In this document: in pieces, positions 1 to 5,615 of the stretch
How the letters are laid out: each line of letters begins with the position of its first letter
Position numbering within the stretch: position 1 is the first letter of the stretch
DNA from: a virus
Taxonomy: Duplodnaviria > Heunggongvirae > Uroviricota > Caudoviricetes
Strand: one strand, 5' to 3'
Length of the DNA: 5,615 nt
Virus record (IMG/VR): IMGVR_UViG_2606217104_000006
Span: 1-5,615 of that record
Notes under the pieces: generated by a model
Database searches by the model: none
What the model saw: the letters and a program-made list of their open reading frames with translations, nothing else
Told to the model about the DNA's origin: nothing
Program-made: the position numbers and the translations under genes

Positions 1-589
1 CGAGCTGTACCGGGATGGCCGGATAACGGAAGCCGCCTGTTGGGCTCACGCCCGCCGTAAAATCCACGATGTGCACGTTCGCACCCCGTCAGCCCTGACG
101 GAGGAAGCGCTGAAACGGATCGGCGAACTGTACGCCATCGAGGCAGAGATAAGGGGAATGACGGCGGAGCAGCGCCTTGCCGAACGTCAGTTGAAAACGA
201 AACCGCTGCTGAAATCCCTGGAAAGCTGGCTGCGTGAAAAGATGAAAACCCTGTCGCGACACTCAGAACTGGCGAAAGCGTTCGCATACGCCCTGAACCA
301 GTGGCCGGCGCTGACGTACTATGCGAACGATGGCTGGGCTGAGGCGGACAATAACATCGCTGAAAATGCGTTGCGGATGGTCAGTCTGGGCCGCAAAAAC
401 TACCTGTTCTTCGGTTCGGATCATGGAGGAGAGCGGGGAGCGCTGCTGTACAGCCTGATCGGGACGTGCAAACTGAACGGAGTGGAGCCAGAAAGCTACC
501 TCCGCTATGTCCTTGACGTCATAGCCGACTGGCCGATAAACCGGGTCGGCGAACTGCTCCCCTGGCGCGTAGCACTGCCGACTGAATAA
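1..589 (+). CDS. IS66-family transposase (TnpC/orf3 type), C-terminal ~195 codons; 5' end lies upstream of the window
   Basis: Open frame enters from the window edge (codon phase from nt 2) and ends at TAA 587-589. The translation contains [12 protein letters not shown] and [71 protein letters not shown], which I recognise as the conserved C-terminal region of IS66-family transposases. Family knowledge only, no search run. Confidence 0.88.
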
Positions 590-626
590 CACATCCCCGT
601 CAATACGGTTCTTGCTGCACGCTTAC
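1..626 (+). mobile_element. Right-hand end of an IS66-family insertion sequence (partial; the rest of the element is upstream of the window)
   Basis: The transposase stop at 589 is followed 37 bp later by a sequence whose reverse complement reads GTAAGCGTGCAGCAAGAACC (nt 626 back to 607). From memory this matches the GTAAGCG-type terminal inverted repeat of IS66-family elements. Immediately after nt 626 the sequence becomes phage tape-measure coding sequence. Confidence 0.75.
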
Positions 627-2079
627 GGCTGAGGCGGGTTCGGTGATCACCCAGTTCAGCCAGGCGCTGGCACAGGGTGTGTTGCGCGGTGAGGAATTTA
701 ATTCGGTCAATGAAAGTGGTGACCGGATCATTCGTGCACTGGCTGCAGGCATGGGCGTGGCCCGTAAAGATCTGAAGGCGATGGCGGACGATGGTCAACT
801 GACGGCGGATAAAGTCGTTCCTGCGTTAATCAGCCAGCTGGAGGTATTGCGTGATGAATACGCGGCCATGCCGGAAACGGTCTCTGACGGGATCACAAAG
901 GTGGAAAACGCCTTTATGGCCTGGGTGGGTGGTGCGAATGAGGCCAGCGGGGTGACGAAAACGCTCTCCGGCGTGCTGAACGGTGTTGCCGGACAGATTG
1001 ATAATGTGGCAACAGCCGTGGGGGCACTGGTTGCCGTCGGGGTTGCCCGGTACTTTGGCAATATGGCCTCCGGAGCGATGTCTGCCACGGCAGGACTTGT
1101 GACGGCTGCACGTAATGAAGTTGCACTGGCGGAAGCACAGTTCAGGGGAACGCAGATTGCCACGGCGCGGGCAAGGGCAGCCGTGTACCGTGCTCAGCAG
1201 GCCGTGGCGGCAGCCCGCGGGACGGAGATGCAGATTGCTGCAGAGGCCCGTCTGGCGGCCACACAGGAACGCCTGAACAGAAATATTGCTGCCAGAAGCG
1301 CCGCCCAGAATGCGCTGAACAGTACAACGGCGGTGGGCTCACGTCTGATGAGCGGTGCGCTGGGGCTGGTTGGTGGCGTACCCGGACTGGTGATGCTGGG
1401 GGCTGCAGCATGGTACACGCTGTACCAGAATCAGGAGCAGGCCAGGGAGTCTGCGCGCCAGTATGCACTGACGATAGATGAAATCGCGCATAAAACGCCG
1501 TCAATGTCTCTGCCTGAAGCCTCAGATAATGAAGGACGAACACGGGCGGCGCTGACAGAGCAGAACCGGCTGATTGATGAACAGGCCAGTCGGGTGAAAT
1601 CCCTGCAGGAAAAAATCGCAGGATATCAGTATGTTCTGGCGAACCCGGGCTGGACGACCGGTGACGGATTCATGATAAACCATCTGACATCGGTGAAGAC
1701 CGTAAATGCCCGTTTTCTGGATGCGGTGAATTTTGTGGCGGGCAATCCGGAAGCGGACCCGGAGCAGGAGCTGAGCGACCGCTGGGTGGTGGAGCAGATG
1801 TCAGAGCTGACGGCCATGACAGCCTCGTTTGTGCTGGCAACACCGACGGAGACGGACGGAGCGCTGTTTCCCGGTCGCATTATGCTGGCGAATACCTGTA
1901 TGTGGACCTACCGCTCTGATGAGTGTGGTTACACGGGCGGGGCTGTGGCGGATGAGTTCGATAAACCCACCACCGATATCCGTAAGGACAGATGCAGCAA
2001 GTGCATGCGCGGGTGTGAGATGCGCGGCATGGTGGCTAATTTTGGCGGTTTCCTTTCCATTAACAAACTTTCGCAGTAA
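627..2079 (+). pseudogene. Chimeric tail-gene remnant: tail tape-measure protein N-terminal fragment fused in frame to the C-terminal cysteine-rich domain of minor tail protein L (gpL-like); 5' end interrupted by the IS66 element
   Basis: Continuous ORF (ORF track 643-2079; coding phase is already open from nt 628). The N-terminal part (FSQALAQGVLRGEEFNSVNE...KDLKAMADDGQLTADKVVPALISQLE) resembles the conserved tape-measure N-terminal domain, followed by an Ala-rich coiled-coil region and a hydrophobic Gly-rich segment (LMSGALGLVGGVPGLVMLGAAAWY) typical of tape-measure proteins. From at least nt 1708 (ARFLDAVNFVAGNPEADPEQE...GRIMLANTCMWTYRSDECGY...DRCSKCMRGCEMRGMVANFGGFLSINKLSQ) it matches the C-terminal half of lambda gpL as I recall it, including the conserved Cys cluster. 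The junction lies roughly between nt 1560 and 1700 and cannot be placed exactly by eye. Confidence 0.75.
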
Positions 2080-2087
2080 TGGATTAT

Positions 2088-2112
2088 GCCCACCATCAGG
2101 TGGGTTTTTTGT
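2088..2112 (+). terminator. Rho-independent terminator downstream of the L remnant
   Basis: GC-rich inverted repeat CCCACC (2089-2094) / GGTGGG (2099-2104) with a 4-nt loop ATCA, followed by TTTTTT (2105-2110). The stop codon of the minus-strand Mnt-like gene (TCA at 2096-2098 on plus, read as TGA on minus) lies in the loop. Confidence 0.7.
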
Positions 2113-2470
2113 TGTCATCACCAAGATATTTCTGCTTATATTCCTCTGAAAGAGGAATTGATCTTTCAACCATGCTAATAAGTTTATCTACTTGTTTTTT
2201 CTGTTTTTCTATGATTTCTAAAAGTTGAGGTATAAGTTTTTCATGCTCGCTTTTATCATATTTTCTGTTTATCGCATCTAGTTGTTCTTTAAACTGCTGA
2301 ACGATAGGACCATCCTCCGGCCCAAAATCACGACAAACACGAATCGCCAACTCAAGCAGAGTGACAATCTCAGCATTCATAGAACGATTATTTTGTTTTG
2401 ATGACGCTTCAATTATTTTTTTTAATTCAACAGGAAGCCTAATCCGAAGTTGAGGGTCTTCTCTACTCAT
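2096..2470 (-). CDS. Mnt-like ribbon-helix-helix (Arc/MetJ superfamily) transcriptional repressor with an extended C-terminal coiled-coil region (124 aa)
   Basis: ORF track 2096-2470 minus. The N-terminus MSREDPQLRIRLPVELKKIIEASSKQNNRSMNAEIVTLLELAI has the beta-strand and two-helix pattern, including the N(G/N)RSMN(S/A)E motif, that I recall from P22 Mnt and Arc. The C-terminal half is charged and heptad-like (QQFKEQLDAINRKYDKSEHEKLIPQLLEIIEKQKKQVDKLISMVE), consistent with an oligomerisation coiled coil as in Mnt. It is transcribed divergently from the Arc-like/Ant-like genes. The Shine-Dalgarno is weak. Confidence 0.8.
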   Translation of the reverse strand: MSREDPQLRIRLPVELKKIIEASSKQNNRSMNAEIVTLLELAIRVCRDFGPEDGPIVQQFKEQLDAINRKYDKSEHEKLIPQLLEIIEKQKKQVDKLISMVERSIPLSEEYKQKYLGDDNKKPT

Positions 2471-2507
2471 ACCATTAGTCCAAACAGGAAAAATTCACAA
2501 TAAGTAA

Positions 2508-2536
2508 ATTATGCCCCACGGTGGGGTTGACTTCAA
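2508..2536 (-). promoter_or_regulatory. Predicted sigma70 promoter for the Mnt-like gene (Pmnt-like), arranged back-to-back with the plus-strand promoter
   Basis: On the minus strand: -35 TTGAAG (plus coordinates 2536-2531), 17-bp spacer, -10 CATAAT (plus coordinates 2513-2508). Its -35 overlaps the -35 of the plus-strand promoter by 2 bp, and the 13-bp palindrome 2514-2526 sits in its spacer. Confidence 0.45.
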
Positions 2537-2555
2537 TGACGCACGGTGTGACAAT
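2527..2555 (+). promoter_or_regulatory. Predicted sigma70 promoter for the Arc-like/Ant-like operon (Pant-like)
   Basis: -35 TTGACT (2527-2532), 17-bp spacer, -10 GACAAT (2550-2555) preceded by TG at 2547-2548 (extended -10). The predicted start near 2562 leaves a ~32-nt leader before the AAGGAG Shine-Dalgarno (2583-2588) and ATG 2594. Confidence 0.5.
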
Positions 2556-2593
2556 TTTGATTGCCCCACAGTGAGGCTATTTAAGGAGTGGAG

Positions 2594-2761
2594 ATGGAAA
2601 AAGCAAAAGACATGTATCAACGCAAGGTTCGTTTCCCAGAGGATGTAAGGAAGGCGATTGAAAGAAATGGAGAAAAAGAGTGTCGACAGTTCAACACGGA
2701 ACTTATTTATCAATTGAGAAAAGTGTACGGACTGATTGGAGAGAAGAATGCTAGGACATAA
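2594..2761 (+). CDS. Arc-like ribbon-helix-helix repressor (55 aa); not in the supplied ORF track, presumably below its length cutoff
   Basis: ATG 2594 is preceded by a strong Shine-Dalgarno AAGGAG (2583-2588, 5-nt spacing); TAA at 2759-2761. Translation: MEKAKDMYQRKVRFPEDVRKAIERNGEKECRQFNTELIYQLRKVYGLIGEKNART. The RKVRFPEDV strand followed by two short helices parallels P22 Arc (FNLRWPREV...NGRSVNSEIYQRV, recalled from memory). Small size and position immediately upstream of an antirepressor gene both fit. Confidence 0.7.
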   Translation: MEKAKDMYQRKVRFPEDVRKAIERNGEKECRQFNTELIYQLRKVYGLIGEKNART

Positions 2762-2830
2762 AAATAGCGAAGCCCGACAGTGCGCGAACACAAATCGGGC
2801 TTCTATGTCAGTAACTTCCAAGGAACTAAC
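2762..2830 (-). ncRNA. Predicted sar-like antisense RNA (~68 nt) complementary to the Arc-like/Ant-like intercistronic region and the Ant-like ribosome-binding site
   Basis: Minus-strand promoter with near-consensus elements inside the 5' end of the Ant-like gene (see next feature) predicts a start near nt 2830. A 9-bp perfect stem (2769-2777 / 2795-2803, 17-nt loop) is followed on the minus strand by GCUAUUUUUAU (plus 2768-2759), a plausible intrinsic terminator ending just after the Arc-like stop codon. The transcript would be antisense to the Ant-like Shine-Dalgarno (2819-2825). Confidence 0.4.
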
Positions 2831-2833
2831 GAA

Positions 2834-3754
2834 ATGAGTATAGCAACAGCGGTATCTACTATCAACGTGCCATTCCACGGCGCAGAGCTTTATGTCGTCA
2901 ATCACAACGGCGAACCGTACACCCCAATGAAACCTATCGTTGAGGGAATGGGTATGGATTGGGCTTCACAGTTTACAAAGTTAAAACAAAGATTTGCTAA
3001 AGGTATTGTGGAAATCGCAATACCTTCAGTTGGCGGTATGCAGACCATGATTTGCCTTGCTTTGCGTAAACTGAATGGTTGGCTCCAAACCATCAGTCCT
3101 AACAAAGTCCGCCCTGAAATCCGCGAGAAGGTAATCCAGTATCAGGAAGAGTGTGACGATGTGCTCTACGAGTACTGGACTAAAGGCCATGTGATTAACC
3201 CGCGCAAAGCTAAAAAGGCATTGCTGGGGAAAATCACCACTGAACAGCAGGAAGCCATTAAACAACTCGTCATGAGTCGCGGTCAGTCTCTGCCAAAAGA
3301 AAAACAGGCGAAGGCGATGATCACCATGTGGTCGTCACTGAAATCCCATTTTGGATGTTCGTACAAAGAAATTAGTGAGGAGCAGTTTACCGAAGCACTG
3401 TCACTTGCTGCTCGCGTTCCGCTTGAAGGTGAGTTCATTGGCAAACAAGAGAAGAAAACCAACGAGCTTTCTGCAAAAGAAGCAAACAGCCTTGTATGGT
3501 TATGGGATTATGCTAACCGCTCACAGGCATTATTCCGCGAACTGTATCCGGCGCTAAAGCAAATTCAATCGAACTATTCCTGCAGATGCTACGACTACGG
3601 TCATGAGTTCTCGTATGTTATTGGAATGGCGAGAGACGTTTTAATCAATCACACGCGAGATATTGATATTAATGAGCCAGACGGACCAACGAATCTTTCT
3701 GCATGGCTAAGACTTAAGAACAAAGAATTACCTCCTTCACTGCATCACTACTAA
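2834..3754 (+). CDS. Phage antirepressor (P22 Ant-like; P22 antirepressor N-terminal-type domain)
   Basis: ORF track 2780-3754, but the start is more likely ATG 2834, preceded by AAGGAAC (2819-2825); the GTG at 2780 lies inside a hairpin loop and has no Shine-Dalgarno. TAA at 3752-3754. The N-terminal region VPFHGAELYVVNHNGEPYTPMKPIVEGMGMDW...RPEIREKVIQYQEECDDVLYEYW matches my recollection of the N-terminal domain of P22-type antirepressors. It sits downstream of an Arc-like gene, as ant does in P22 immI. Confidence 0.72.
   Translation: MSIATAVSTINVPFHGAELYVVNHNGEPYTPMKPIVEGMGMDWASQFTKLKQRFAKGIVEIAIPSVGGMQTMICLALRKLNGWLQTISPNKVRPEIREKVIQYQEECDDVLYEYWTKGHVINPRKAKKALLGKITTEQQEAIKQLVMSRGQSLPKEKQAKAMITMWSSLKSHFGCSYKEISEEQFTEALSLAARVPLEGEFIGKQEKKTNELSAKEANSLVWLWDYANRSQALFRELYPALKQIQSNYSCRCYDYGHEFSYVIGMARDVLINHTRDIDINEPDGPTNLSAWLRLKNKELPPSLHHY
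2837..2865 (-). promoter_or_regulatory. Predicted promoter of the sar-like antisense RNA, located within the first codons of the Ant-like gene
   Basis: Minus-strand -35 TTGATA (plus 2865-2860), exactly 17-bp spacer, -10 TATACT (plus 2842-2837). Both hexamers are 5/6 matches to consensus. Confidence 0.5.
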
Positions 3755-3772
3755 CAGATTGCCAACGAAATG

Positions 3773-3796
3773 ACCCAGCTTCGGCTGGGTTTTTTA
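3773..3796 (+). terminator. Rho-independent terminator downstream of the Ant-like gene
   Basis: 7-bp stem ACCCAGC (3773-3779) / GCTGGGT (3784-3790) with a UUCG tetraloop (3780-3783), followed by TTTTT (3791-3795). Confidence 0.8.
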
Positions 3797-3808
3797 TCAG
3801 GAGTTCTC

Positions 3809-4546
3809 ATGCTCTATAGCAATATATTGGCGCACGCCCGGCGATGTGCGCCAGCGGAGTCGTGCGGCTTCGTGGTGAGAACGCCGGAGGGGGAAAGATA
3901 TTTTCCCTGCGTGAATATCTCCGGTGAGCCGGAGGATTATTTCCGGATGGCTCCGGAGGACTGGCTGCAGGCCAAAATGCAGGGTGAGATTGTGGCGCTG
4001 GTCCACAGCCACCCCGGTGGCCTGCCCTGGCTGAGCGAGGCCGACCGGCGGCTGCAGATAAAAAGTGCACTGTCCTGGTGGCTGGTCTGCCGGGGGGACA
4101 TTCATAAATTCCGCTGTGTGCCACATCTGACAGGACGGCGCTTTGAGCACGGGGTGACGGACTGTTACACGCTGTTCCGGGATGCCTACCATCTGGCGGG
4201 AATTGATATGCCGGATTTTGAGCGTGAGGATGACTGGTGGCGCAACGGTCAGAACCTTTACCTGGACAATATGGCGGTCACCGGCTTTTACCGGGTGCCC
4301 CTGTCCTCTGCACAGGCGGGCGATATCCTGCTGTGCTGCTTTGGCGCATCGGTGGCCAATCATGCCGCCATTTACTGCGGCAACGGTGAACTGCTTCACC
4401 ATCTGCCTGAACAACTGAGTAAACGGGAGAGGTATTCCGAAAAATGGCAACGACGAACGCATTCTGTCTGGCGTCACCGCCACTGGCACGCATCTGCCTT
4501 CACGGGGATTTACAACGATTTGGCCGCCGCCTCAGCCTGTACGTGA
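3809..4546 (+). CDS. K: Tail tip assembly protein K (lambda gpK-like; JAB/MPN plus NlpC/P60 domains)
   Basis: ATG 3809 with AGGAG (3799-3803) 5 nt upstream. The ORF-track start at 3770 would place the first 13 codons inside the preceding terminator hairpin, so it is rejected. The translation contains the JAMM-type motif VHSHPGGLPWLSEADR and an NlpC/P60-like Cys/His pair (GVTDCYTLF ... NHAAIYCG), and is collinear with lambda K as I recall it (ILAHARRCAPAESCGFVV...). Confidence 0.88.
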   Translation: MLYSNILAHARRCAPAESCGFVVRTPEGERYFPCVNISGEPEDYFRMAPEDWLQAKMQGEIVALVHSHPGGLPWLSEADRRLQIKSALSWWLVCRGDIHKFRCVPHLTGRRFEHGVTDCYTLFRDAYHLAGIDMPDFEREDDWWRNGQNLYLDNMAVTGFYRVPLSSAQAGDILLCCFGASVANHAAIYCGNGELLHHLPEQLSKRERYSEKWQRRTHSVWRHRHWHASAFTGIYNDLAAASACT

Positions 4547-5124
4547 ACACGGCAGCGGAAGCCATCCGGGCGCTGTCGTTACAGGTGCCGGGATTCCGCC
4601 GTCAGATGAACGAAGGCTGGTACCAGATACGTATTCGCGGTGAGGACACGGCACCGGAGGCGGTGTACGCCCGTCTTCACGAACCTCTGGGTGAGGGGGC
4701 GGTCATCCATATTGTGCCGCGACTGGCCGGAGCCGGAAAGGGCGGACTGCGGATTGTGCTGGGGGCGGCAGCCATCGTGGGCTCTTTCTTCACTGCCGGA
4801 GGCTCGATGGCGTTATGGGGTACAGCCCTGAGTGCCGGTGGTTTTTCTGCCACCACGATGCTGTTTTCACTGGGTGCCAGCATGATTCTGGGTGGTGTGG
4901 CCCAGATGCTGGCACCGAAGGCAAAAACACCGGATTACCGCGCAACGGATAACGGTAAACAGAACACGTATTTTTCGTCACTGGACAATATGATTGCCCA
5001 GGGTAACCCGATGCCGGTGCCTTACGGGGAAATGCTGGTTGGTTCACGACGGATATCCCAGGACATCAGCACCCGTGATGAAGGCGGGGGCGGAAAGGTC
5101 GTGGTTATCGGGCGGCAGGGGTAA
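4444..5124 (+). CDS. I: Tail tip assembly protein I (lambda gpI-like)
   Basis: ATG 4444, TAA 5122-5124. The translation (ASPPLARICLHGDLQRFGRR...VIHIVPRLAGAGKGG...GASMILGGVAQMLAPKAKTP...GKQNTYFSSLDNMIAQGNPMPVPYGEM) closely parallels lambda gpI as I recall it. Its 5' end overlaps the 3' end of K by 103 bp in a different frame; I recall a K/I overlap of about this size in lambda. Confidence 0.9.
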   Translation: MATTNAFCLASPPLARICLHGDLQRFGRRLSLYVNTAAEAIRALSLQVPGFRRQMNEGWYQIRIRGEDTAPEAVYARLHEPLGEGAVIHIVPRLAGAGKGGLRIVLGAAAIVGSFFTAGGSMALWGTALSAGGFSATTMLFSLGASMILGGVAQMLAPKAKTPDYRATDNGKQNTYFSSLDNMIAQGNPMPVPYGEMLVGSRRISQDISTRDEGGGGKVVVIGRQG

Positions 5125-5155
5125 AAAGAATAAAAAAATCCCGCAGAGTTGCGGA
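5125..5155 (-). terminator. Possible minus-strand intrinsic terminator in the I-J spacer
   Basis: Short GC-rich stem CCGCA (5141-5145) / TGCGG (5150-5154) with loop GAGT. On the minus strand it is followed by a run of 7 U (plus-strand A-run 5132-5138) and further U-rich sequence. The stem is only 5 bp, so this is tentative. Confidence 0.35.
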
Positions 5156-5294
5156 ACTGAGGGAGCGTTACGAAGATTAAGTGTAAGGAATTATTCTTAT
5201 GTCACGACAAAAAACATTAACGCAGAGAAATTATTAGCACCACAGTCAGTTTGTAAAAATGTGAAGATATTCAGAAGTTTTATTCAGTGATGAT

Positions 5295-5326
5295 ACAGGC
5301 ATCCTCAGGGATGCCTGTTGTTTTTG
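5295..5326 (+). terminator. Strong rho-independent terminator 34 bp upstream of the J start codon
   Basis: Perfect 10-bp stem ACAGGCATCC (5295-5304) / GGATGCCTGT (5309-5318) with loop TCAG, followed by TGTTTTT (5319-5325). Confidence 0.7.
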
Positions 5327-5359
5327 TGCGTAACAGTTATCACAGTAAAGGGTGAGACA

Positions 5360-5615
5360 ATGGGCAAAGGTGGCGGCAAGGCGCACACACCGCGCGAGGC
5401 GAAGGACAATCTCAAATCCACGCAGATGATGAGTGTGATTGATGCGATTGGTGAGGGACCGATAGAAGGCCCGGTGAAAGGCCTGCAGAGTATTCTGGTG
5501 AACAAAACCCCGCTGACGGACACGGACGGTAATCCCGTGATACACGGTGTGACGGCGGTCTGGCGCGCCGGGGAGCAGGAGCAGACACCACCGGAAGGCT
5601 TTGAGTCCTCCGGAG
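5360..5615 (+). CDS. J: Host specificity / tail tip central fibre protein J (lambda gpJ-like), N-terminal 85 codons; continues beyond the window
   Basis: ATG 5360 preceded by AAAGGGTGAG. Translation MGKGGGKAHTPREAKDNLKSTQMMSVIDAIGEGPIEGPVKGLQSILVNKTPLTDTDGNPVIHGVTAVWRAGEQEQTPPEGFESSG closely matches the N-terminus of lambda J as I recall it (MGKG..KGHTPREAKDNLKSTQ...GPIEGPV...RAGEQEQTPPEGFESSG). Open to the window end. Confidence 0.92.
   Translation, partial: MGKGGGKAHTPREAKDNLKSTQMMSVIDAIGEGPIEGPVKGLQSILVNKTPLTDTDGNPVIHGVTAVWRAGEQEQTPPEGFESSG

Follow-up and report, generated by a model that had tools for sequence, protein, structure and literature searches.

The question raised by the locus described here is what a compact, AT-rich block of genes is doing inside the tail operon of a lambda-like prophage, and whether it is still a complete regulatory switch. 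The stretch of DNA analysed (hereafter the window) comprises 5615 bases, positions 1 to 5,615 of the IMG/VR record IMGVR_UViG_2606217104_000006 (Caudoviricetes), and represents the tail region of a lambda-like prophage that has become degraded. The block occupies 2080-3829 of the window (1.75 kb), between tail genes L and K, and is in all likelihood (a probability of roughly 0.8) an antirepressor cassette of the immunity I type, still intact, whose parts and layout are homologous to the mnt-arc-sar-ant region of phage P22 and which travels in a defective prophage as an insulated moron. P22-type immunity I was taken to consist of an antirepressor which is a homologue of P22 Ant with both P22_AR domains and which acts by binding and inactivating repressors of lambdoid prophages, a divergent Mnt-type ribbon-helix-helix (RHH) repressor with a C-terminal oligomerisation domain, a small Arc-type RHH repressor encoded first in the ant operon, divergent promoters with palindromic operators, and a sar antisense RNA over the ant ribosome-binding site (RBS), while a moron was taken to be a unit of cargo in a late operon, present in some and absent from other syntenic relatives, with a promoter and terminator of its own and deviant base composition. 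An earlier, sequence-only reading of the window had proposed a P22-like mnt-arc-ant module of about 1.7 kb between an L remnant and K; the module, its three genes and its terminators were recovered, whereas the sar-type RNA, the set of operators and the exact boundaries had been missing from its list.

The reference for the assignment was the P22 record NC_002371, in which a leftward mnt, overlapping Pant and Pmnt promoters with the Arc and Mnt operators, arc, sar, ant, a terminator and the tailspike gene 9 follow one another; sar is annotated there as an RNA of 70 nt with its promoter inside the 5' end of ant and its terminator at the arc stop codon. The gene order and orientation in the window were the same, as had been proposed, and each annotated feature of the P22 region was found to have a counterpart. 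The three genes, at the coordinates given in the earlier reading, were found by open reading frame (ORF) listing and encode a Mnt-like repressor of 124 amino acids (2096..2470, minus strand), a candidate Arc-like repressor of 55 amino acids (2594..2761, plus strand) and Ant, of 306 amino acids (2834..3754, plus strand). RefSeq gene calls coincide exactly with all three ORFs in two complete E. coli genomes carrying 99.9% identical DNA (in locus L003 the counterparts lie at 8017-8391 on the minus strand and at 8515-8682 and 8755-9675 on the plus strand), and all three are full length, the same as the RefSeq calls in intact prophages.

The assignment is clearest for the antirepressor. Ant matched both Pfam domains of the P22 protein (P22_AR_N, E 9e-45; P22_AR_C, E 4e-29) as well as the PHROG anti-repressor Ant (E 5e-97), and shares 56% identity with P22 Ant from end to end (309 alignment columns), the C-terminal third (110 residues) being nearly identical; an Ant-like product, as proposed for this ORF, is thus a homologue of P22 Ant with both domains. 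Identity to the O55/O157-type Ant was 88%, and copies 96-97% identical were found in P22-like phages, where they lie between the homologues of gene 16 and gene 9. A PDB sequence search with Ant returned no relative of solved structure.

The leftward gene encodes an N-terminal RHH domain followed by a long helical C-terminal domain. Its product was matched by the Pfam family Arc (PF03869; E 3e-7, 30.6 bits, above the cut-off of 20.4), and its best match among all solved structures in the PDB was P22 Mnt itself (1mnt, E 0.0015, residues 3-43), to which it is 33% identical over 43 amino acids, bearing out the Mnt-like RHH repressor of the earlier reading. The AlphaFold2 model consists of an extended N-terminus, the RHH helices (14-26 and 31-49) and two further helices (55-70 and 74-115), with a block-mean predicted local distance difference test score (pLDDT) of 83-89 over residues 11-40. 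The top Foldseek matches of this model were RHH proteins (AmrZ, Arc and CopG), with a probability of up to 0.98 and a template-modelling score of up to 0.81 on the target; E-values were weak because the domain is short. The protein is therefore a divergently encoded RHH repressor of the Mnt type with a predicted helical C-terminal domain, which would serve oligomerisation (tetramer formation). In NC_002371 the product of P22 mnt (locus L005, 6520-6771) is named 'partition protein ATPase', and the same name is borne by phrog_795 and phrog_2685, which match the Mnt-like protein of the window; this looks like a mislabel that has spread.

The first gene of the ant operon is preceded by an RBS, AAGGAG (2583-2588). 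Its 55-amino-acid product was matched by the PHROG Arc-like repressor phrog_228 (E 1.3e-5), a profile of 30 sequences aligned in register, weakly, with Arc chains in the PDB (E 0.05-0.14), and its homologues carry the NCBI name Arc family. No NCBIfam family scored above its cut-off for any of the three cassette proteins. In both RHH proteins the predicted DNA-reading strand has the pattern Q-x-(R/K)-x-R (Q-R-R and Q-K-R), which would fit a half-site shared by the two.

A control interval of 123 bp (2471-2593) separates the Mnt-like and Arc-like genes. Three operator-like palindromes of 17 bp were identified there, spaced by exactly 25 and 25 bp: O1 (2512..2528, centre 2520), which reads TGCCCCAC-G-GTGGGGTT; O2 (2537..2553, centre 2545), which reads TGACGCAC-G-GTGTGACA; and O3 (2562..2578, centre 2570), which reads TGCCCCAC-A-GTGAGGCT. 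The core of the palindromes, CCACGGTGG, is also the core of the P22 Mnt operator, AGGTCCACGGTGGACCT. A putative Pmnt was located on the minus strand (2508..2536; -35 TTGAAG at 2536..2531, -10 CATAAT at 2513..2508; 9/12 in a consensus scan), and a putative Pant for the arc-ant operon on the plus strand (2527..2555; -35 TTGACT at 2527-2532, extended -10 TGtGACAAT at 2547-2555; 9/12 with the TG); both are predicted to be active. O1 falls within the Pmnt spacer, directly next to the Pant -35, O2 overlaps the spacer and -10 of Pant, and O3 lies at about +1 of Pant, the position that the Mnt operator has relative to Pant in P22. The interval thus holds putative divergent promoters with palindromic operators, to which the repressors would bind, in a geometry unlike that of P22; the matching of each repressor to a particular site would have to follow P22. 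A Pmnt that fully overlaps Pant, as in P22, was considered and rejected, the minus strand having no acceptable -10 at the required place.

Conservation of the control region was followed in related loci. In loci from other genera the TTG of the Pmnt -35 and the whole of its -10 are kept; the TTGAC and TGTGACA of Pant are invariant. All three palindromes are kept in loci of Klebsiella and other Enterobacteriaceae. Related loci retain a palindrome at O3 with varying outer bases, and in locus L092 the site is a perfect palindrome (TGCCCCAC-C-GTGGGGCA). A scan for the O2 18-mer ATGACGCACGGTGTGACA, for which about 17 chance matches were expected in 596 Gb, gave 18 matches, of which 15, all in species representatives (from Proteus, Xenorhabdus, Kluyvera, Pluralibacter, Rouxiella, Yersinia pestis, Raoultella, Dryocola, Mixta and Pantoea), were accompanied by the remaining control region and both RHH genes. 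The other three (two in Streptomyces and one in Virgibacillus) had no neighbouring RHH genes and were set aside as chance. In the 15 representatives hardly any change is seen over some 45 bp, from the Pmnt -10 through O1 and the Pant -35 to O2, whereas the Mnt-like and Arc-like proteins are only 58-90% identical. O1 itself is nearly invariant in the 15 Enterobacterales genomes save for its central base, which is free to vary, as expected of an odd palindrome.

The remaining element of immunity I, which the earlier reading did not list, is an antisense RNA. A predicted sar-like unit of about 71 nt was found on the minus strand (2760..2830). It begins with a 5' hairpin whose loop holds an anti-Shine-Dalgarno sequence, after which a terminator hairpin (2803..2769) leads into a U-run across the arc stop codon; the RNA is complementary to the ribosome-binding region of ant. 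The putative Psar (minus strand, 2837..2865, inside ant codons 2-11) has a -35 TTGATA (2865..2860), a spacer of 17 bp and a -10 TATACT (2842..2837), and at 10/12 with a TG it is the best promoter match of the whole region; its -10 hexamer, and its place relative to the ant start and the conserved AGTATAGCA codons, are the same as those of the annotated P22 Psar. The computed fold of the RNA (-28.3 kcal/mol, z -4.9) has two hairpins, like that of P22 sar. This shape was kept in all ten sequence variants obtained from 80 related loci: in the 5' stem 98.6% of cells were paired (at most 57% in slid controls) and 3/6 pairs showed compensatory changes, as did 6/14 pairs of the terminator stem. The 5' stem was misaligned by MAFFT, and for this reason the hairpin was aligned alone and pairs were counted in place of a covariance model. 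Many pairs of this stem are G-U, which would be A-C on the mRNA strand; this suggests that the minus strand is the one that folds. Promoter, fold, terminator and covariation together give the architecture of a sar antisense RNA over the ant RBS.

The limits of the cassette could be placed exactly. In lambda the L-K junction reads TAA, ATCCC, ATG, a spacer of 5 bp before the real start of K (in agreement with the short gap given for lambda in the earlier reading), and the cassette stands in place of this spacer and the first seven codons of K. On the left, the boundary (2080..2112, plus strand) includes an intrinsic terminator found by a terminator scan (stem 2088-2105, T-run to about 2112); its sequence is missing from the lambda junction, is common to the window and the O55-type allele, and was 31/31 identical in loci L003, L004 and L008. 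At the other end an intrinsic terminator of the ant operon (3772..3796, plus strand) has an 8-bp stem (hairpin 3772-3791), a TTCG loop and a T-run, is kept in all alleles at the L-K site, and marks the point (window 3795) at which similarity to P22-like phages stops. It is followed by the right boundary (3797..3829, plus strand), which provides K with a different RBS, CAGGAG, and a different start of its coding sequence (MLYSNI... in place of lambda MTQTESAI...). The segment 3755-3829 was 75/75 identical in L003, L004 and L001, and beyond it the identity of K drops to 85-88% in L003, L004 and L008. Terminator-like sites were more numerous in the region than expected from shuffles (5 against 1.8). 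Both hairpins with T-runs that had been said to bracket the module were therefore found, although the left one faces the tail operon and not mnt: both lie on the plus strand, co-directional with the tail operon, so that the left terminator stops transcription coming from L and is not the terminator of the leftward gene, the last four codons of which (KKPT-stop) it overlaps. It was observed that Mnt-like homologues with otherwise differing C-terminal domains nearly all end in KKPT (alignment A4), because opposite these codons (2096-2110), on the other strand, stand the conserved boundary hairpin and T-run, which travel with the cassette; a terminator on one strand thus fixes the end of a protein on the other.

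The composition and distribution of the cassette are those of exchanged cargo. The GC content is 0.426 in the cassette (2080-3808) and 0.585, 0.587 and 0.599 in the fused tape-measure-L ORF, K and I, respectively (overall 0.43 against 0.59), in agreement with the AT-rich module seen between GC-rich flanks in the earlier reading. Over 2080-3829 the cassette is identical at 1749/1750 positions to that of strain Res13-Lact-PEA14-20 (L004), whereas the flanking genes of that locus are 77% (L), 87% (K) and 74% (I) identical to those of the window. The flanks of the window are 92-98% identical to those of an O55:H7 prophage (L001), the cassette of which has the same boundaries and most of ant and a different allele over 2111-2923, the segment that extends from the Mnt-like gene through the operators, the Arc-like gene and sar to codon 30 of ant. 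An occupied ant-terminator-K junction was found in 461 of 5426 complete E. coli genomes and an empty lambda-type L-K junction in 4317 of them, and the regulatory allele of the window was present in only two. The earlier reading had held that a module of uniform composition present in all close relatives would argue against acquired cargo; the insertion is polymorphic and its composition deviant, it carries predicted promoters and terminators of its own, and horizontal exchange of a discrete cassette is strongly supported by these comparisons.

The same Mnt-like/Arc-like control region was also found in other settings, namely in a baseplate cluster, before a tape-measure gene and after K/I (in Yersinia, Kluyvera and Xenorhabdus), and in Klebsiella (L090 and L091, 3302-4771) it drives proteins with Bro-N and P22_AR_C domains; regulators and cargo recombine independently. 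Further loci with the control region in other settings are L089 (2582-4273) and L103 (Yersinia pestis, 3414-6916). In locus L094 (2653-3000) the Arc-like gene, O2, O3 and ant are present, and unrelated sequence stands in place of the Mnt-like gene and O1; expression of ant would be expected from this natural 'mnt-less' variant unless Arc and sar are enough.

Comparison with P22 immunity I showed the likeness to extend beyond gene order and orientation. Both regions have a leftward RHH repressor that carries a helical domain at its C-terminus, a small protein encoded first in the ant operon (an RHH repressor in P22 and a putative one in the window), divergent promoters (predicted in the window), palindromic operators that share the Omnt core CCACGGTGG, an antisense RNA which starts from a promoter within the first ant codons and ends at the arc stop, a terminator after ant and a location inside the late operon. 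They differ in the host operon, which is a lambda-type tail cluster (L-K) in the window and the interval between gene 16 and gene 9 of a podovirus in P22; in the length of the Mnt-like protein (124 amino acids against 83 in P22); in the operators (three similar ones at 25-bp spacing against one Oarc and one Omnt); in the promoters, those predicted in the window overlapping only at their -35 hexamers and those of P22 almost fully; in the DNA contacts (Q-R-R and Q-K-R against H-x-N-x-R in P22 Mnt and Q-x-N-x-R in P22 Arc); and in the sar sequence, which in the window is too diverged for the Rfam family RF00262.

A closely related cassette is known at the same site in lambdoid prophages of enterohaemorrhagic E. 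coli (EHEC) and in Shiga toxin (Stx) phages. This sister allele, present in O157, O55 and O111 prophages and in the long-tailed Stx phages 2851, 1717, YYZ-2008 and Stx2a_WGPS8, is annotated as two Arc family proteins and Ant in RefSeq and as an antirepressor in the Stx phages, and shares with the window the insertion site, identical boundary sequences, the three-gene layout and an Ant that is 88% identical. Over 2111-2923, by contrast, aligned identity is only 59%, the Mnt-like protein has 106 amino acids, and the repeats are of a TGGCA type where those of the window are CCCCAC-N-GTGGGG. Embedding in a lambda-like tail cluster, which the earlier reading had singled out as worth a look, is not unusual. 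In P22-like phages (epsilon34, CUS-3, HK620 and others) an 'ant moron' has been described as variable, independently transcribed late-operon cargo in rapid flux, usually containing ant and regulators, at one site between genes 16 and 9 of podoviruses (Villafane et al. 2008, PMC2629481); the cargo of the window differs in lying in a siphovirus tail operon, and relatives of its control region were found within baseplate clusters, ahead of tape-measure genes and behind K/I. The LexA-controlled small antirepressors (Gifsy GfoA/GfhA, N15 AntC and coliphage 186 Tum) act in trans, inactivate non-cleavable or cleavable prophage repressors and can thereby tie the induction of one prophage to that of others (Lemire et al. 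2011, as cited in PMC8044961). These are unrelated proteins under the control of host LexA, unlike the cassette of the window, which has two phage RHH repressors and an antisense RNA and in which no LexA box was identified. A table of the antirepressors encoded by the Sakai prophages appeared in 2009 (PMC2669165), and Ant families have been counted in 126 Stx phages (PMC8136144); a literature search found no functional study of the L-K cassette, only these antirepressor tabulations and the 'ant moron' concept (PMC2629481). The cassette of the window is thus a member of a known and already annotated kind and a rare allele in E. coli, and what is mildly new is confined to the variant geometry of its control region and the divergence of its sar RNA.

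The regulatory logic of P22 immunity I and the action of Ant on repressors are established (summarised in PMC2629481), and by analogy a working scheme for the cassette can be proposed. In the prophage state the Mnt-like RHH protein of 124 amino acids, made from Pmnt, would bind O1-O3 and shut Pant. Where this protein is missing, on entry into a naive cell or on loss of the repressor, Pant would transcribe the arc-like gene and ant, and Ant may then bind and inactivate CI/C2-type repressors of its own prophage or of co-resident lambdoid prophages. The Arc-like protein would subsequently close Pant, and the sar-like RNA of about 71 nt, made from Psar, would pair with the ant ribosome-binding region, so that the synthesis of Ant would be brief. 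The plus-strand terminators at the two ends would keep the cassette and the tail operon separate unless Q-modified polymerase reads through late.

Several observations weigh against an intact cassette of the P22 type. Every step of the scheme, as applied to this allele, would hold only by analogy with P22, and the geometry of Pant and Pmnt and the presence of three operators are unlike P22, such that the division of labour between the repressors may differ. Promoter-like sites were not enriched (4 in the region against 3.1 in shuffles), and consequently the promoters were assigned on position and conservation only. The weakest link in the assignment is the 55-amino-acid protein: proposed as an Arc-like repressor, it has the position, the size and the PHROG match of one, but its Pfam Arc score of 19.2 bits is just under the cut-off of 20.4, and sequence support for it is moderate. 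Its AlphaFold2 monomer (helices 16-25 and 27-44) was of low confidence (pLDDT 66) and Foldseek found no fold match for this monomer model; as RHH proteins fold as dimers, the poor model is uninformative and is not a negative result. An Rfam scan of the window at E <= 1 matched neither RF00262 (sar) nor any other family. P22, as positive control, scored 97.8 bits against a gathering threshold of 43 bits, two of the sequence variants exceeded that threshold, and O55, L010 and L064 scored about 29 bits; with the scan of the window empty, the sar-like unit is argued from promoter position, fold and covariation, and the RNA is a sar by architecture and not a member by the Rfam family test. Finally, the host prophage is broken (an IS66-family fragment and an H-L deletion) and the window holds no repressor gene.

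The state of the prophage also invites the view that the cassette is an inert relic, unexpressed or non-functional, which has survived because degradation of its host is recent. The IS66-family fragment at the truncated tape-measure gene, the H-L fusion and the loss of M speak for this, as do the lack of a cognate repressor in view and published transcriptome data in which mnt was not expressed from the mnt-arc-ant locus of a P22-like E. coli prophage (PMC12922286). All ORFs, promoter elements, operators and both terminators are nevertheless intact, and 1 base in 1750 differs from the copies in intact prophages. A recently inactivated prophage would look equally intact, which makes intactness weak evidence either way, and on balance a relic is considered unlikely. 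The contrary suggestion, that the cassette is still active in trans although the prophage is dead, with both RHH repressors reading the shared half-site TGCCCCAC at three phased operators and the Mnt-like protein setting an 'immunity I type' on which it would depend whether incoming or co-resident lambdoid phages, including Stx phages, are able to express Ant, is tentative and itself doubtful. Activity of the cassette in this particular remnant would follow by analogy with P22.

It is also conceivable, though quite improbable, that the Ant-like protein does not act on repressors and has another regulated function, as a Bro/KilA-type regulator, an anti-defence protein or a superinfection-exclusion factor, the repressors merely keeping a costly gene silent. 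Repressor binding has been shown for P22 Ant only, neither Ant domain has a solved structure, and the same control region drives the Bro-N and P22_AR_C proteins of Klebsiella L090 and L091; such a role fits poorly with 56% full-length identity to P22 Ant and a nearly identical stretch of 110 C-terminal residues, and no PADLOC defence-system model matched any cassette protein. A main selected role in tuning the expression of K, I and J through terminators and convergent promoters is scarcely credible. Two plus-strand terminators do interrupt the tail operon, the cassette provides the RBS and first codons of K, and an effect of the P22 ant moron on tailspike levels has been proposed (PMC2629481), but most lambda-type tail operons have no cassette (the 4317/5426 empty junctions) and cassettes are found in tail and baseplate operons at several different positions, which speaks against any role specific to K. 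An intact antirepressor cassette of the immunity I type remains the preferred reading.

Antirepressor cassettes let one prophage switch on others, and in E. coli strains with several lambdoid prophages, toxin-converting ones included, this bears on the timing of toxin and phage particle release. The cassette described here is a discrete exchangeable unit of the tail operon with exact boundaries, its regulatory half exists in distinct alleles at one site, and nearly every base of the control region of the present allele is conserved between Proteus, Yersinia and Pantoea and the genera in between. It offers defined targets in the form of three operators, two putative promoters and a sar-type RNA missed by the present Rfam model. 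The general picture of how immunity I works is unchanged; a known system is extended to a rarely seen allele and its mobility is documented. Should the trans-active reading be true, the cassette's own Ant could induce neighbouring prophages without an SOS response, and the swappable half 2111-2923 would define incompatibility groups of tail-operon antirepressor cassettes across Enterobacterales.

The remainder of the window is made up of tail genes and the insertion sequence fragment. The 3' end of an IS66-family transposase gene (1-626, 87% identical to ISEc8) adjoins the tape-measure gene (H), which is truncated at its 5' end. In the ORF at 643-2079 the N-part of the tape-measure protein continues in frame into the C-part of L (junction 1705/1706), giving a chimera of 478 amino acids; its L portion is the L remnant of the earlier reading, and M and most of H and L have been lost through this H-L deletion, with which a prophage cannot build a tail. 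The whole window was absent from every one of the complete E. coli genomes (n=5426), the best of which covered 86% of it in 5 pieces, and the H-L deletion junction had 0 matches among one-genome-per-species contigs. K (3809-4546, 245 amino acids, with JAB and NlpC/P60 domains), I (4444-5124) and the start of J (near 5360) follow the cassette.

The gap between I and J (5125-5359) is 235 bp long with 37% GC, against 60 bp in lambda. It contains a minus-strand promoter-like site, TTTACA-16-AATAAT (5257..5230, 10/12), and terminators with T-runs on the minus strand (5158..5137) and the plus strand (5295-5318), and resembles a second small, AT-rich, insulated cassette, possibly encoding a minus-strand RNA of 70-90 nt; an Rfam scan of the gap at E <= 1 matched no family. 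In O157 strain 4276 ISEc8 is inserted in this gap. With regard to K, the lambda reference (L006, NC_001416) annotates a shortened gene (start 14276, 199 amino acids), whereas lambda DNA (L006 1129-1280) aligns with K of the window (3809-3960) from an ATG 5 nt past the L stop. A base missing in lambda near GAGG(A)TTATTTCC places the N-terminal, JAB-domain part in another frame, and RefSeq prophages annotate the long K directly after L.

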